Origin: an uncultured Anaerolineaceae bacterium
Lineage (GTDB): Bacteria; Chloroflexota; Anaerolineae; Anaerolineales; E44-bin32
Reading direction: 5' to 3'
NCBI GenBank assembly: GCA_964492745.1
Contig: CAZBLT010000004.1
Span: forward strand, 28,668-92,667
DNA length: 64,000 nt
Shown here: positions 2,813 through 55,780 of the stretch, in pieces
Layout of the letters: every line of letters begins with the position of its first letter
Position numbering within the stretch: position 1 is the stretch's first letter
Program-made: the position numbers and the translations under genes
The notes under the pieces: generated by a model
The model's database searches: none
Seen by the model: the letters and a program-made list of their open reading frames with translations, nothing else
Told to the model about the DNA's origin: nothing

Positions 2813-3595
2813 CTAGTCGAGGTCTAGCGGGATCCCCAAGATATTGTAACCCGAGTCCACAAAGAGGATTTCGCCTGTCACCTTGCTGGCCATCGGCGAG
2901 CAGAGCCAGACGGCAGCGTTGCCAACATCCTCGATGGTGATATTCTCCCCCAAGGGTGTCCGGGCGGCGAATTGGCGGTACATGCGCTTAAAGCCGCTCA
3001 CGCCGGCGGCCGAGAGCGTCCGAACGGGTCCGGCGGATATGGCGTTCACCCGTAGGCCCTGCCTGCCTAGGTCGGCGGCCAGGTAGCGGGTCGTCGATTC
3101 GAGCGCGGCCTTGGCGATGCCCATGACGTTGTAGTTGGGGACCACTTTCTGGCCGCCGTAATACGTCAGCGTCAACAGGGCACCGCCCGCTTTCATGTGT
3201 GGCAGTGCGGCGCGGGCCAGGGCGATGAATGAGTAGACACTGACGTTCATGGCGATTTGAAAGCCGGCGCGGCTGGTTTGGTGGAAATCGCCCTGAAGAT
3301 CCGAGCGCTCGGCGTATGCGATGGCATGGACCAAAATGTCGAGCGGTGCGAAGCGCTCGCCCACCTTGTTGAAGAGCGCCTCGATCTGCTCATCCTGGGT
3401 CACGTCACAGGGTTCGACGAAGGTCGAGCCCACCGATTCGGCCAGCGGCCGCACGCGGCGCTCTAGGGCCTCCCCGGCGTATGAAAAAGCGAGTTGCGCG
3501 CCCTGGTCATGCATGGCCTTGGCGATGCCCCATGCAATCGAATGGTCATTGGCAACGCCAAAGATCAAGGCGCGTTTGTCCTCGAGAAGTCCCAT
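2813..3595 (-). CDS. fabI: Enoyl-[acyl-carrier-protein] reductase (NADH) FabI
   Basis: The sequence [27 protein letters not shown]...[22 protein letters not shown] (Y-x6-K) is FabI-like. The start is trimmed to the ATG at 3595, which has AAAGGAGGG 6 nt upstream; the track ORF extends to 3661. Confidence 0.9.
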
Positions 3596-3615
3596 GCGGT
3601 TCCCTCCTTTGGCCA

Positions 3616-4209
3616 TCAACGGCTGATTTGAGCCCTGAAGCGCCACGGCATGCTCTTCCATGGCTCATCCACCTGGTTTAAACCCACGCGCGGCCCGATT
3701 GTCACGGCTGAATCCGAGATGGCCAGACCTTGCTCCAGGAAGAGCGCGGCTTCTGGGGAGCAGAGATCGGAGCCATTGAAGCTGCGGTCGATCCCGAGTG
3801 CCTGACAGAGTTTGGCAGGGCCATCGGTCAGGGATAGGAGCGGCCGCTCTCCGCGCCTTGCCTGCATGGTCTCGAGACCTTCCTCCGGCAGCAGGGCGCG
3901 GATGAGGACCGCGGCGGGGAACCCTTCTGCTTCGGTCACGACATTGAACATCCAATGCATCCCATAGATGAAGTAGACGTAGGCAAAGCCGGGCTGACCC
4001 CACATGGGGGCGTTGCGTGGTGTGAGCCCCACGGAGGCATGCGACCCCTTATCATAAATGCCGATGTAGGCTTCGGTTTCGGTGATCAAGCCCGCTGTGC
4101 GAAGCCCGCCGGGCTCCAGGCGCACGATACGCTGCCCGAGCAGCTGGCGGGCCACGGCAAGGGTGGGCTGGGCGTAGAACTCGCGAGGCAGACGCGGGAC
4201 TTGGCTCAT
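3616..4209 (-). CDS. DNA-3-methyladenine glycosylase (MPG/AAG family)
   Basis: 197 aa. [16 protein letters not shown]...[15 protein letters not shown]...[15 protein letters not shown] is the classic MPG-family signature. Confidence 0.85.
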
Positions 4210-4286
4210 CTCGGCCGAAGGGCTGTTGTCGGGTTGAGGTAATTGCAGGCGGGTGTGAGTGAGGGTTGCATCTGGCGGGAAGCGAG

Positions 4287-5222
4287 CTAACCGTTGGCGG
4301 GTTGGAAGCGCGCATCTTGCTGGATCATGCGCTTCAGTCCATCCTGAAGGCGGAAGCGCGGCGAGTAGCCGAGTTTCTCCTTCGCCCGCTGGATATCAGC
4401 GCACATCCGTGAGGGGCCCGGATCCTGATCTTCCTTGAAGATCCACTCCGCCTGTATGCCTAGCGCTTCCATTGCGTATTGACCCAGGTCGCGAATGCTG
4501 GTCTCTTCGCCGCTTCCGATGTTGATAACCAGGCGGTCGACGGTAGGTGCAGTGGCAGCCGCGACCATGGCTTCAACCACGTCATCGAAATAGACGAAAT
4601 CGCGGGTCTGCTCGCCGCGGCCGTGGATAACAATCGTCCCGCCCCGGGCGATCTGGCGCAGGAAATGGGGGATCACGGGGGGATGGGCTACCGAAAGCGG
4701 CTGCCCAGGCCCATAGGCGTTAAAGACCCGTAGCGAGACGGTCTCGATGCCCCAAAGGGTGCCGATAGTGCGGACGTAATGCTCGGCTGCCAGCTTGGAG
4801 ACGGCATACGGCGAGCCGGGATTGGGAGGCGTGTCCTCCCTGAGTGGCTGCGCTGCCTGGTCGCCATAGATAGCGCCCGAGGAGATGAAGACGACCCGCC
4901 GCACGCCCACGTCGCGCATGGCCTCCATAACGCTCACCGTTCCGCCGACGTTGATGATGTTGTACTCCCGGGGGTATAGCACCGATTCTGGGACAGAGAC
5001 TTTCGCCGCCAAGTGGTACACGCAGTCGATATCCTGCAGCAAGGTCCAGAGTTTGGGTCGATCGGTGACATCACCGCGAGTGAAGAGCACATCCGGACTG
5101 AGGCGCTCTGGATCGCCGGCTGAGAGGTCATCCAGCGCACGTACCTGATGCCCCTCGCGGGCGAGACGATTAGCGAGGGCGGATCCCAGGAAGCCGGCTG
5201 CACCGGTGACGAGGAAGTTCAT
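4287..5222 (-). CDS. NAD-dependent epimerase/dehydratase (UDP-glucose 4-epimerase-like SDR)
   Basis: MNFLVTGAAGFLGSALANRL (GxxGxxG) plus YAVSKLAAE (YxxxK). The start is trimmed to the ATG at 5222; the 87 upstream codons of the track ORF look non-coding. Confidence 0.85.
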   Translation of the reverse strand: MNFLVTGAAGFLGSALANRLAREGHQVRALDDLSAGDPERLSPDVLFTRGDVTDRPKLWTLLQDIDCVYHLAAKVSVPESVLYPREYNIINVGGTVSVMEAMRDVGVRRVVFISSGAIYGDQAAQPLREDTPPNPGSPYAVSKLAAEHYVRTIGTLWGIETVSLRVFNAYGPGQPLSVAHPPVIPHFLRQIARGGTIVIHGRGEQTRDFVYFDDVVEAMVAAATAPTVDRLVINIGSGEETSIRDLGQYAMEALGIQAEWIFKEDQDPGPSRMCADIQRAKEKLGYSPRFRLQDGLKRMIQQDARFQPANG

Positions 5223-5288
5223 GGTTTCAGGTGAGGTCTCGGCCAAATCTACGCGGCCGGATGAGGTCGCGATTATAACATAGTGGCA

Positions 5289-5316
5289 TTGACACGAATT
5301 GGCCGCTTGGTATGAT
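5289..5316 (+). promoter_or_regulatory. Candidate sigma70-type promoter (TTGACA-N16-TATGAT) for the 5323 gene
   Basis: TTGACA lies at 5289-5294 and TATGAT at 5311-5316. The ATG at 5323 sits 7 nt after the -10 box, so the mRNA may be leaderless. Confidence 0.4.
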
Positions 5317-5322
5317 GCCCCC

Positions 5323-6600
5323 ATGTTCCGATCGACGCCGCCGCTTAGGCTCCTTGCCCGTATCGGGAGCGTGATCTTCGCGCTGGCGCTGACGCTCGCC
5401 TTGGGCGGCAGCACGCTGGCGGTCCAAACGCTTGTTGACCGCATCGAGCGGTTGACTTTTCCGGTCGAATTCGATTTTCTCACCTGGACGGTCGCGGCCC
5501 TGGCTGAAAAGACAGGCGCGGCCGGACTAAGGGCGACGGATTACCTCGCGGATGCCGACCGACGGCGAGCGGTCCTGGAGTACCTGGACATGCTCGCGAG
5601 CGTGCATCAGTTGCGCGCCGACCTGGAATCCACTCTGGCAGATCCCACACGTGAGAACCACGAAGAGGACGCGGCCGATATCCGCATCCGGCTTGGGCGG
5701 GAGGCGCGGCGACTGGACCGGCTGCGGCCGCTGGCGGAGAGCGTGCTCCAGGAGCAGGTGGCGCTGGCCTTGGGAGACTCGGGTCTCGGACTGGCAGGCG
5801 TGCCTTTCCCTCCTGTGGTCTTTGCCTTCGCGCCGCTGCCTTCCTCGCTCATCGTCTCGCCCAGAGAAATCATCCGCCAGGAGGCGAGCATTTCCCTGAA
5901 GGTCGATCTGACCCTGGAGCAGAAGATCCAGCTCGAGCGCAGGGTTGAGCAGGCGCTCAATGTCTCCGCGCTTGTGGTTCCCGTTGGAGGGCTTGGTACC
6001 TATCCCACGATGGTGCAGGAGAGCGCGGATTTGCGCTGGATTGCCGAAGTAGTCGCCCATGAATGGACTCATAATTACTTGGCGCTGCGCCCGCTTGGCT
6101 GGCGGTACGGGGCCAGCCCCGAGATGCGGACCATCAATGAGACGGTGGCCTCGTTGATCGGGGAGGCCATTGCCCGCCGAGTGTTGGAGACCTACTATCC
6201 AGAACGGCTGCCGCCGCCTCCTGCGCCGGTCTCGCCGGCAGGACCCCCGACGCAAGAGGAGCCAGCCACCTTCGACTTCCGGGCTGAGATGCGGGAGACG
6301 CGGCTTCGCGTGGACGCGCTGCTGGCGGAGGGGAAGATCGAGGAGGCGGAACGCTACATGGAAGCCAGGCGGCTGGTCTTCTGGGAGCATGGCTATCACA
6401 TCCGCAGGCTCAATCAGGCCTACTTCGCCTTTCATGGCGCCTATGCGGATGAGCCCGGAGGTCCGGCAGGGGATGATCCTGTAGGGGAGGCTGTACGTCA
6501 GCTTTGGGCTCGCATCGCCTCCCCGGCCGAATTCCTGCGCCTGGTATCAAGGGTCCGCAGCTTCGAGGAATTGCAGGGTCTGCTGATTAACCTTCCGTGA
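5323..6600 (+). CDS. Membrane-anchored hypothetical protein with an HExxH zinc-metallopeptidase-like motif
   Basis: N-terminal TM helix (IGSVIFALALTLALGG) and the motif VAHEWTHNYL. The start is ambiguous: TTG at 5299 or ATG at 5323. No RBS precedes 5323. Confidence 0.6.
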   Translation: MFRSTPPLRLLARIGSVIFALALTLALGGSTLAVQTLVDRIERLTFPVEFDFLTWTVAALAEKTGAAGLRATDYLADADRRRAVLEYLDMLASVHQLRADLESTLADPTRENHEEDAADIRIRLGREARRLDRLRPLAESVLQEQVALALGDSGLGLAGVPFPPVVFAFAPLPSSLIVSPREIIRQEASISLKVDLTLEQKIQLERRVEQALNVSALVVPVGGLGTYPTMVQESADLRWIAEVVAHEWTHNYLALRPLGWRYGASPEMRTINETVASLIGEAIARRVLETYYPERLPPPPAPVSPAGPPTQEEPATFDFRAEMRETRLRVDALLAEGKIEEAERYMEARRLVFWEHGYHIRRLNQAYFAFHGAYADEPGGPAGDDPVGEAVRQLWARIASPAEFLRLVSRVRSFEELQGLLINLP

Positions 6601-25233: not shown

Positions 25234-25718
25234 CAGGGGCCCTCATCCAGGCTTGCGGCGACCTCTCGCGGATCCACCGCTCCCACGGTCCGCCACAGCT
25301 CCTGGCCCTGGCCATCGATGAAGATGAAGGTAGGCGTATATTGGAAAGGATAACGCTCCATCCAGGGCTGGCTTGCGGGGTCTTGCACGTTCAGCCGCAG
25401 CACCGTCAGCTCACCCGCGTGGTCTCTCTCGATTCCATCCACGATGGGTTTCATCGCCATGCAGCCCAGTCAATAAGGGCTCTGGAACTCGAGCAGGACA
25501 GGCTTTCCGCCGCCCACGATTTGTGCGACTTGGTCGGCTCTCGCAGTGGCGCTGCGGCCGGGGCTGAACAGAAAATAGGTGAGGCTCAGGCCCAGTAGCA
25601 ATGCAGCCAGCGCCAGCGCCTTACCTAGGTCCAGACCCCCGCGGCGTAGGAATGCCAGCAGGACTAGAAGAAGCGCGCCGGCGGCGATCGTGAAGGAATT
25701 CTGGTTGATGAATATCAT
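25233..25718 (-). CDS. Membrane-anchored thioredoxin-like selenoprotein candidate (UxxC; in-frame TGA at 25472..25470)
   Basis: Track ORFs 25470..25718 and 25233..25460 are in the same frame and separated only by TGA-CTG-GGC-TGC. The joined reading ...KPVLLEFQSPY-U-LGC-MAMKPIVDGIERD...YTPTFIFID places the TGA at the first Cys of a Trx CxxC motif. An N-terminal TM helix is present. Confidence 0.75.
25435..25447 (-). promoter_or_regulatory. Candidate SECIS hairpin for the thioredoxin-like gene
   Basis: The mRNA reads CCAUC-GUG-GAUGG, starting 22 nt after the UGA. Flanking GAU/AUC pairing is possible. The apical loop contains GU. Confidence 0.5.
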
Positions 25719-34574: not shown

Positions 34575-34647
34575 GGGCCTGTGGCGCAGTTGGGAGCGCG
34601 CATCAATCGCACTGATGAGGTCGCGGGTTCGAATCCCGCCAGGTCCA
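34575..34647 (+). tRNA. tRNA-Ala (anticodon CGC)
   Basis: Manual cloverleaf: acceptor GGGCCTG/CAGGTCC with the G3:U70 Ala identity pair, D-arm GCGC-AGTTGGGA-GCGC, anticodon arm CATCA-ATCGCAC-TGATG and T-arm GCGGG-TTCGAAT-CCCGC. The discriminator is A and no CCA is encoded. Confidence 0.9.
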
Positions 34648-34656
34648 CTCGAGCAA

Positions 34657-34732
34657 GGGCCCATGGCGCAGCTGGGAGCGCGTCTCAATGGCATTGAGAA
34701 GGTCGTGGGTTCGAATCCCACTGGGTCCACCA
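34657..34732 (+). tRNA. tRNA-Ala (anticodon GGC), CCA encoded
   Basis: Acceptor GGGCCCA/TGGGTCC with G3:U70, anticodon arm TCTCA-ATGGCAT-TGAGA and T-arm GTGGG-TTCGAAT-CCCAC, followed by ACCA. Confidence 0.9.
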
Positions 34733-43038: not shown

Positions 43039-43264
43039 CCTACACCTCCTGCGACAATGTCCATGCCTCATTATGGCACAGGTTCTCGCATGAATAAAGG
43101 TATGCGATGAAGTGCTCGGCTTGCCGATTGAGGGATCTCGCCGAGGAACAATATTATGGCCGGTGCCCTATTGCGGGGTATACTTCGGTGCGTTGTGCGC
43201 CGCCAAGCGCTCTTCCCTTTGAGGATGAACGGTGGCGAGCTTCTTCACAAGGAGGAAATGTGGT

Positions 43265-43501
43265 ATGGCTGATATCAGCATCGAATATTGTGCGGTTTGA
43301 CATTATACTGATAGGGCCATCGGTGCGATGGCGGAAATCTTGAAGACCTTCGAGCGGCGGATTGCTTCGGTTACACTGATCCCCTCCGATTCGGGCCGGT
43401 TTGAGGTTAAGGTTGACGATCAGCTGATCTATTCGAAGCTTCAAACCGGGCGGCATGTGGAAGAGGGCGAACTCATCGAGCTGATCGAGAAGGCATTTTA
43501 G
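43265..43501 (+). CDS. SelW-like (Rdx family) selenoprotein, CxxU motif; in-frame TGA at 43298-43300
   Basis: Not in the ORF track. The ATG at 43265 has GGAGGA at 43251-56. The translation is MADISIEYCAVUHYTDRAIGAMAEILKTFERRIASVTLIPSDSGRFEVKVDDQLIYSKLQTGRHVEEGELIELIEKAF*. The IEYCxxU...L.PS..G.FEV.VDG.L.YSK...GR pattern is the bacterial SelW-like/Rdx signature. Confidence 0.8.
43316..43332 (+). promoter_or_regulatory. Candidate SECIS hairpin for the SelW-like gene
   Basis: GCCAUCG-GUG-CGAUGGC forms a perfect 7-bp stem starting 15 nt after the UGA. The apical GUG loop lies 23-25 nt after the UGA. Confidence 0.6.
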
Positions 43502-43542
43502 CCGCCCTATCCTTCTGATCCGGCAAGATTGGGGTGATGACG

Positions 43543-43995
43543 ATGCGAGCCGTCCTGCAACGGGTGCGCCGCGCCGCGGTGGTTGTCGATGGGCAGCGTA
43601 TCGCGGAGATCGGACCCGGCCTGTTGATCCTCCTGGGAGTGGGCCTGGGAGATACCCACACAGAAGCCGTCTGGCTGGCAGATAAGTGCGTCGCGCTGCG
43701 CATCTTCGAGGATCAAAATGGCAAGACCAATCTCTCGGTGCAAGATGTGGCTGGCGAGGCGCTGGTGGTTTCGCAATTCACCCTCTACGCCAACACGAAG
43801 AAGGGCCGCCGCCCAAGCTTCGTCGAGGCCGCGCCTCCGGAGGTCGCCGCGCCCCTGGTAGATGCCTTCACAGAAAGGCTGGCAAGCCACGAAGTTCCCG
43901 TGCAACAGGGGCGCTTCGGGGCGCACATGCTGGTTGAGATCGAGAACGATGGACCTGTGACGATCCTGCTGGAGCGCAAGCCTGAGGATCGATGA
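43543..43995 (+). CDS. dtd: D-aminoacyl-tRNA deacylase
   Basis: MRAVLQRV...ILLGV...SQFTLYA...KG.RPSF...G.FGA.M.V...NDGPVT is the Dtd signature. The track ORF starts 9 nt earlier, at a GTG. Confidence 0.9.
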
Positions 43996-54887: not shown

Positions 54888-55780
54888 GATGGGGGCGGAG
54901 ATCCTCTACGACTCTTGCGCAGGATCTCCCGGAAGCGCGGGCGCAGCGCAGCAATAATAGGGGAGGGCTGCGGGGGCTGCCAGCCGCGGGTAGCCTCCTC
55001 CACAGGCTCCGGCCAGGTTTCCGGGCTGTGCACGATAGTCCCGGGCTCTTCAGCCTGCTCAAGCAATCCGAGGGCCTGGCTGAGCACTCGCAGATGCATC
55101 TCGGCATCCCTCGGCTGGCCGAGCGGATGGCCGAAGGGAAATTCTACGCCCAGCGTGCGGGGAGTGCCTATGCGTTCGGCCCAGTAGGGCATCATGGAGA
55201 TGACAACGGTAGCCAGTCCAGCAGCTTCGAGCGTGCGTGCCAACACGGGCACGTTGATGGCGCAGTCTGGTCAAGCCGGAGTGAGAATCACGCAATCCAC
55301 CCCAGCATGCACGAAACGGTCGGCCACCTCCGGGCCATAGGTCTTCTCCCAGGCCGTGGTATCTGGGGGGAAGCCCTGAAAGCCCATGAAGGAGAAATGT
55401 TCCGGGGCCACGGCCCCGATGACGCCGCCCTCGGCCAATCTATTCAGAGGTTCGATGGGCAACAGAATGTTGAAATCAGCCTCGGCGTCACGTGCGTTGT
55501 AATGCAAGTGGCCCACCCCCAAATCAGCCGGGTGGACATTGGTCGGGATAGGCCGGTATGTCGGGTCTCCCCAAGTGGGCTGCTGTTTCTCGCGCTCGAG
55601 GTCAAACGGGGGCTGAGAATCACGCAGGTAAAGGCCTCCGGAGGTGACCAATCCGATGGTGCACTCGGACAGCGGGCGGGGAAGCGGTGTCCAGGGGATG
55701 GGGAGTCGCCGCTCGACATCGGCCATTCGATAGTAAGTGGCGATTATGCGGGGCAGGAACTTGAAGCTATCAACCGTCAT
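54884..55780 (-). CDS. GrdB-family (glycine/sarcosine/betaine reductase selenoprotein B-like) selenoprotein candidate; in-frame TGA at 55273..55271
   Basis: Track ORFs 55271..55870 and 54884..55252 are in frame. The joined reading is ...HAGVDCVILTPA-U-PDC-AINVPVLARTLEAAGL.... IGLVTSGGL, LPIEPLNRLAEGGVIG and GVD.VILT..U..C match the Sec region of clostridial GrdB as I recall it. The start is trimmed to the ATG at 55780 (AGGAG RBS). Confidence 0.75.
55236..55253 (-). promoter_or_regulatory. Candidate SECIS hairpin for the GrdB-like gene
   Basis: The mRNA reads CGUGCC-CGUGUU-GGCACG, a 6-bp stem starting 17 nt after the UGA. The loop contains GU. Confidence 0.5.

Follow-up and report, generated by a model that had tools for sequence, protein, structure and literature searches.

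A SelW-like gene of an Anaerolineae genome, probably decoded as a selenoprotein through an in-frame TGA and truncated by gene callers

Does the TGA triplet that interrupts a short reading frame in this Anaerolineae genome end a peptide of 11 residues, or does it encode the selenocysteine (Sec) of a SelW-like protein that annotation has overlooked? The question arises within a stretch of 64 kb, which is the whole of the DNA analysed and is called the window below, and in which the mechanical list of open reading frames (ORFs) holds a single entry at this locus, a 57-aa product starting from the ATG at 43328. When the TGA is read through, a longer gene appears, with the following features:

43128–43157, forward strand: weak promoter match of the sigma-70 type, TTGAGG-18-TATTAT, between the SelW-like gene and the divergent gene ahead of it
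43251–43256, forward strand: Shine-Dalgarno (SD) sequence GGAGGA, with a spacer of 8 nt to the ATG at 43265
43265–43501, forward strand: complete coding sequence of the SelW-like (Rdx family) gene, 78 codons followed by TAG, with the predicted Sec at codon 12
43289–43300, forward strand: predicted redox motif Cys9-Ala-Val-Sec12 (TGT GCG GTT TGA), aligned with CTQC/CRQC of 2FA8, 3DEX, and 2P0G
43298–43300, forward strand: in-frame TGA, very probably read as Sec, given its conservation in homologs
43316–43332, forward strand: SECIS-like hairpin GCCAUCG-GUG-CGAUGGC, whose apical loop starts 22 nt past the UGA
43328–43330, forward strand: internal ATG (Met22), the start used by gene callers, inside the 3' arm of the hairpin
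43534–43995, forward strand: dtd, D-aminoacyl-tRNA deacylase (PF02580), about 32–35 nt past the SelW-like gene

The gene starts with the ATG at 43265–43267 and ends with the TAG at 43499–43501, the TGA being its codon 12. A re-reading of the sequence agrees with the positions that an earlier sequence-only reading had given for these three codons, and the read-through peptide quoted there is exactly the translation. That reading had also placed a GGAGGA ribosome-binding site (RBS) 9 nt upstream of the ATG, of which the site itself stands and the spacing is to be corrected by one nucleotide, and had located, 15 nt past the UGA, a perfect hairpin of 7 bp, which is indeed found there. Its expectation that gene callers would miss or truncate the gene is borne out by public annotation: on all eight contigs shown, of 22 carrying the gene in JGI, ENA, and Logan assemblies, the called gene is exactly the 57-aa product. 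The promoter match, which scores 9 of 12 and is no commoner than in shuffled sequences, is only a candidate. No terminator-like site was found between the SelW-like gene and dtd, and the two genes are probably co-transcribed.

By using profile searches in which the TGA was read as Cys, we found that the 78-residue product matches Pfam Rdx (PF10262) across the TGA, as the sequence-only reading had proposed to check, with 80 bits (E = 1.5e-22; threshold 22.6) over residues 4–75. It also exceeds the cut-off of TIGR02174, CXXU_selWTH (61.4 bits vs. 34.2), and scores 78.8 bits with the equivalog model NF041051, SelTWH_Campy, below the 88-bit cut-off, which makes the gene a relative and not a member of that group. 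The best matches of a PDB sequence search were the SelW-related structures 2FA8 (Atu0228), 3DEX (SAV_2001), and 2P0G (Vibrio cholerae), with whose CxxC motifs C9-A-V-[TGA]12 lines up so that the TGA takes the place of the second Cys. The fold was modelled by AF2 on P0002, a homolog 63% identical to the window protein. This model (pLDDT 93.9) has the order beta1-loop-alpha1-beta2-beta3-beta4-alpha2 and places the CxxU motif between E2–9 and H15–32, that is, in the beta1-alpha1 loop; in Foldseek comparisons, it superposes on 2OBK, 2FA8, 3DEX, and 2P0G with TM scores of 0.87–0.91 and on mouse SelW (2NPB) with a TM score of 0.73. On this basis, the window gene belongs to the Rdx family and codes for a SelW-like protein of 78 residues, with the thioredoxin-like fold indicated by the homolog model.

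Relatives were collected in a scan with one genome per species, which yielded 572, and the comparisons described here use the best 80 of these 572, all Chloroflexota-labelled and mostly Anaerolineae, among them the isolates Thermanaerothrix daxensis GNS-1 (NZ_LGKO01) and T. solaris (NZ_JAUHMF01). In these 80 species genomes, the aligned codon is TGA without exception (80/80), and TGC or TGT occurs in none (0/80). The block YCAV-TGA-HYTDRA around it is almost invariant in the same set, and the Cys of the motif and the TGA are invariant in 81/81 sequences. Nucleotide entropies at the three codon positions are 0.69/0.52/1.47 before the TGA and 0.87/0.47/1.38 after it, a pattern which indicates that the same frame is under protein-coding selection throughout. 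All loci but one (L063) have a start codon 10–12 codons ahead of the TGA, mostly behind a GGAG-type RBS. Homologs that align only downstream of the TGA, which the sequence-only reading had named as evidence against itself, are thus not what we observe, since both the upstream block and the start are conserved. In L063 (about 2995–3003), an in-frame TAA lies nine codons before the Sec codon (RM-stop-ITIEYCAV) and no standard start is found upstream; this early stop is likely a 1-nt assembly indel or reflects an atypical start.

If the UGA specifies Sec in a bacterium, a SECIS-like hairpin should follow it within the coding sequence. The consensus used by bSECISearch (Zhang and Gladyshev, 2005) reportedly places the apical loop within 16–37 nt of the UGA, with G(U) in the loop; the window hairpin, a perfect 7-bp stem with the loop GUG, falls in this range and has its G in the loop. 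The minimum free energy fold adds three optional outer pairs, between GAU at 43310–43312 and AUC at 43337–43339. Taken on its own, the hairpin is weak evidence. Its folding energy, computed on a 53-nt segment, is not significant against shuffled sequences (z = −0.73), and a comparable hairpin, defined as a perfect stem of at least 7 bp with a G at loop position 1 or 2 and the loop itself 16–37 nt downstream, follows 19 of the 1,687 TGA triplets of the window (1.1%). The argument is consequently a combined one, in which the hairpin counts together with the family homology on both sides of the TGA and the conservation seen in other genomes.

We addressed this conservation by aligning, without gaps, the 48 nt from the UGA in the 80 sequences, where the window helix pairs columns 19–25 with 29–35. 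Standard pairs make up 88% of the cells in the window helix, vs. 20–56% when the partners are slid. Double-sided changes occur in four of the seven pairs (38 cells), and the covariation score was reached by 0/500 shuffles. Pair 22/32 is never unpaired (AU in 41 sequences, GC in 25, GU in 14), and pair 24/30 covaries from C-G to U-A through changes that are all synonymous and at third positions (AUC to AUU, both Ile, together with GCG to GCA, CUG to CUA, or CAG to CAA). The switch is seen in L045 and L086 as well as in L014, L015, L022, and L028, the latter four having closely similar N-termini, and constraints on the protein hardly account for it. The 30-nt segment has a mean folding energy of −11.4 kcal/mol, vs. 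−5.1 in control windows from the same loci, and in 86% of genomes it is among the top 10% of windows by stability. Conservation at the nucleotide level is also due in part to the conserved peptide HYTDRA(I/V)G.

In about a quarter of the genomes, the stem adopts another register (CCGGGCC-GUG-GGCCUGG), 4 nt nearer the UGA and with its loop 18 nt from it. The existence of two registers implies that the genomes share a stable, G-containing hairpin at SECIS distance rather than one fixed helix. The register switch (alignment columns 15–35; window 43312–43332) is accompanied by Ile/Met to Val/Ala-type changes in the peptide. A scan against Rfam, at the gathering score and at E up to 10, gave no family match to the hairpin, which says little because, to our knowledge, Rfam contains no general bacterial SECIS model. 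The description of the hairpin as SECIS-like in the sequence-only reading is supported by its conservation among homologs with compensatory changes, and we regard it as a putative bacterial SECIS element to which SelB would bind. The AUG of Met22 lies within its 3' arm, which helps to explain both the partial conservation of this Met and the systematic miscalling of the gene.

The machinery for Sec decoding was searched by tblastn with E. coli SelA, SelB, and SelD as queries. SelD detected a homolog in L063, 1.6 kb past the SelW-like gene, in a cluster (3001–5874; the same locus as L116) with the order selW-like, trpS, dtd, selD; the catalytic position of this selD is likewise an in-frame TGA (CAG-U-ASK). 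Two further SelD scans, the later one with a lineage-specific SelD segment, gave 31 loci and the best 80 of at least 526, nearly all Chloroflexota-labelled. The catalytic codon is TGA (CAG-U-ASKL) in 18/30 and 71/80 loci, respectively (L116–L226), and TGT or TGC in the other 12/30, which are mostly Leptolinea- or Flexilinea-labelled. At least ten genomes of the SelW set carry selD (among them CAZTZE01, CAWAKH01, CAYRBO01, DIDQ01, and DAOUBQ01, as well as DYJB01, JAJRUD01, JABGQU01, DAOUGR01, and CAVOSB01). Because each list holds the best 80 of more than 500, an overlap of ten is close to that expected were both genes present in nearly all of these genomes. In about six loci (L063, L087, L117, L168, L169, and L223), the SelW-like gene lies within 2–4 kb of selD. 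CAZQDE01, the GTDB representative MAG of the window species and itself a carrier of the SelW-like gene, is not among the 80 SelD matches listed (of at least 526). No Sec machinery was found when 20 further ORFs of the window were surveyed with Pfam. SelB and Sec-type formate dehydrogenases have been reported in single-cell genomes of Anaerolineales, and SelB in A. thermophila (PMC4959059).

Two other genes of the window are interrupted by a TGA:

55780–54884, reverse strand: PrdB-like gene (PF07355), TGA at 55273–55271, motif TPA-U-PDC
25718–25233, reverse strand: thioredoxin-like candidate, membrane-anchored, 161 aa, TGA at 25472–25470

The first is split by callers into ORFs of 169 and 103 aa and reads ...VILTPA-U-PDC... 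when the TGA is translated. TIGR04483 (PrdB) matches across the TGA with 147 bits, which is below the equivalog cut-off, hence the name PrdB-like. The TGA is kept by all of its homologs (25/25). Among these are the MAG CAZQDE01, from the same species, and three further genomes in which the SelW-like gene also occurs. A hairpin of 6 bp (CGUGCC-CGUGUU-GGCACG) begins 17 nt past the UGA. In the thioredoxin-like candidate, the TGA stands at the first Cys of the CxxC (Y-U-L-G-C), the Pfam domains Thioredoxin and Thioredoxin_2 cross it, and a 93%-identical metagenome relative (L227) retains it; no convincing SECIS-like hairpin was identified at this site. As for the SelW-like gene, the folding energies of the two sites are not significant. 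From these alignments, the PrdB-like gene is predicted to be a second selenoprotein gene of the window, and the thioredoxin-like protein is a third candidate. One PrdB-like gene is carried by a MAG labelled "Methanosarcinales archaeon" (L100; JAIWHF010000117.1; coverage 0.33), whose sequence around the TGA is identical to that of three Anaerolineales-labelled MAGs (L091, L106, and L111); the archaeal label is probably due to binning contamination.

These observations bear on the possibility that the UGA of the SelW-like gene is read by a standard amino acid, either through near-cognate insertion of Trp or Cys or through a reassigned TGA code. Such a reading would accommodate the results of the searches for Sec machinery, in which ARAGORN found no tRNA-Sec in the 64-kb window or the related loci scanned and neither the window nor about 1.5 Mb of sequence from related loci matched the SelA and SelB queries. 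It would also accommodate the W printed at the Sec position in two Logan calls, P0002 (L232) and P0005, which are the sole full-length products in the protein database; however, the DNA reads TGA in both, and these short contigs were evidently called with a code in which TGA is Trp. Against a reassigned code, TGA is the ordinary stop of 13 of the 30 window genes, from which we conclude that the code is standard. Trp, moreover, would inactivate the motif, as the position aligns with a catalytic Cys. Neither variant accounts for a hairpin conserved at SECIS distance, nor for the presence of TGA at known Sec or Cys sites in the PrdB-like and SelD homologs of the lineage. We therefore consider it very unlikely that a standard amino acid is inserted.

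Slightly less probable still is that the TGA is a true stop, in which case an 11-residue leader peptide would precede the real gene, a 57-codon ORF starting at the ATG at 43328. This ORF passes the Pfam Rdx threshold by itself, with 55 bits, and its product is the one called on every contig shown. The difference between 80 and 55 bits nevertheless means that the 11 codons ahead of the TGA carry family signal, worth 25 bits, and these codons show protein-type conservation. The internal Met is present at the Met22 position in only 51/81 homologs, whereas the upstream start is near-universal, and no SD-like motif precedes the ATG at 43328. An independent 57-aa protein would also lose beta1 and the entire CxxU active site. 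The judgement of the sequence-only reading that a peptide followed by a separate ORF is the less parsimonious interpretation is thus strengthened by the homologs. A pseudogene in decay, or a Cys codon (TGC/TGT) misread in sequencing or assembly, of which a lone in-frame stop in a short ORF would be the usual signature, is effectively refuted by a TGA that is identical in eight independent metagenome assemblies of the window population, which excludes a sequencing error and disposes of the Cys codon that the sequence-only reading had allowed resequencing might reveal, and that is kept in 80/80 other species, where the codons before and after it are under purifying selection.

The in-frame TGA at codon 12 almost certainly encodes Sec. 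The claim of an uncalled SelW-like selenoprotein gene made from the sequence alone agrees with the family match across the TGA, the TGA in 80/80 relatives, and the conserved, covarying hairpin. We infer a SelB- and SECIS-dependent insertion of Sec into a SelW-like thiol/selenol oxidoreductase whose gene would be co-transcribed with dtd, and we give this explanation a probability of about 0.9. Translation would begin at the ATG at 43265 behind GGAGGA, and the ribosome would pass the UGA at 43298 without terminating, as the hairpin at 43316–43332, within the coding sequence, would recruit SelB-GTP-Sec-tRNA(Sec) for the insertion of Sec. The product, with Cys9-x-x-Sec12 between beta1 and alpha1, would most likely work as a thiol/selenol oxidoreductase.

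Bacterial SelW-like selenoproteins are said to have been described by Kryukov and Gladyshev in 2004. They have been known since 2004–2005, and the window gene is an annotation gap, not a discovery. It resembles them in its size of about 80 residues, in a CxxU past beta1, in its predicted thioredoxin-like fold, and in an in-frame UGA with, after it in the coding region, a stem-loop that has a G in its small apical loop. Nothing fundamental sets it apart from other bacterial SelW-like selenoproteins, of which it represents the Anaerolineae/Chloroflexota branch, in which trpS or dtd is the conserved next gene. In the Sargasso Sea survey, SelW-like proteins with a CXXU motif and a coding-region SECIS outnumbered every other selenoprotein family (PMC1088965). 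Sec-using organisms have few or no Cys forms of this family (PMC1794560), which matches the absence of such forms from the 80 genomes compared here. The Cys-form Rdx proteins 2FA8, 3DEX, 2P0G, and 2OBK (Pseudomonas fluorescens) share the same fold, with an rmsd of about 1 Å to the homolog model, but have a CxxC with ordinary Cys codons, are about 25 residues longer, and are about 30% identical. Mouse SelW (2NPB) and MIEN1 also belong to the Rdx family, with CxxU/CxxC and a thioredoxin-like fold (TM 0.73–0.75), at an identity of about 19%. Decoding of the eukaryotic gene depends on a SECIS in the 3'-UTR and on SBP2/eEFSec, whereas the element of the window lies inside the ORF straight after the UGA, in the bacterial style. 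Like SECIS elements of the E. coli fdhF type, it is a coding-sequence hairpin that closely follows the UGA and has G(U) in its apical loop; unlike them, it is a putative SelB target in which no bulged U was identified, it has no sequence similarity to them, and its helix register varies among Anaerolineae sub-clades.

The neighbourhood of the gene is conserved as well, and in Anaerolineae the gene forms the first cistron of the cluster. In 59 of 79 genomes (drawn from the best 80 of the 572 relatives), trpS directly follows the SelW-like gene on the same strand, often with a gap of −4 to +15 nt, so that stop and start codons overlap or nearly abut, which suggests translational coupling; dtd is the neighbour in 19 genomes, the window included, and another gene in two. 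Literature searches on a linkage between SelW-like genes and trpS, and on Anaerolinea with SelW, returned nothing specific. We consider it unlikely, though less so than any of the alternatives to Sec weighed above, that the conserved arrangement with trpS, dtd, and selD is functional. If it were, the efficiency with which Sec is decoded at codon 12 might gate translation of the trpS, dtd, or selD gene coupled to it; alternatively, the SelW-like protein might be a partner of SelD in redox chemistry or in the handling of selenium. Elsewhere in the window, two tandem tRNA-Ala genes on the forward strand, at 34575–34648 (CGC) and 34657–34732 (GGC) and 8 nt apart, lie directly upstream of a leucyl-tRNA synthetase gene.

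Since the SelW-like gene and at least one other predicted selenoprotein gene of the same 64 kb are truncated or split in every public call seen, the selenoproteomes of Anaerolineae, an abundant class in sediments and digesters, are under-counted. Callers are misled consistently because the false internal start sits in the stem of the putative SECIS. The new biology is otherwise little, SelW-like proteins being among the most abundant bacterial selenoprotein families; what is added is a dual-coding SECIS-like stem that holds a false start, two helix registers within one class, two or perhaps three predicted selenoprotein genes in 64 kb, and the conserved placement with trpS, dtd, and selD. This linkage is the only point that might open something new. 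tRNA-Trp is a near-cognate misreader of UGA, and, if the gating were true, selenium status would be linked to the enzyme that charges tRNA-Trp.
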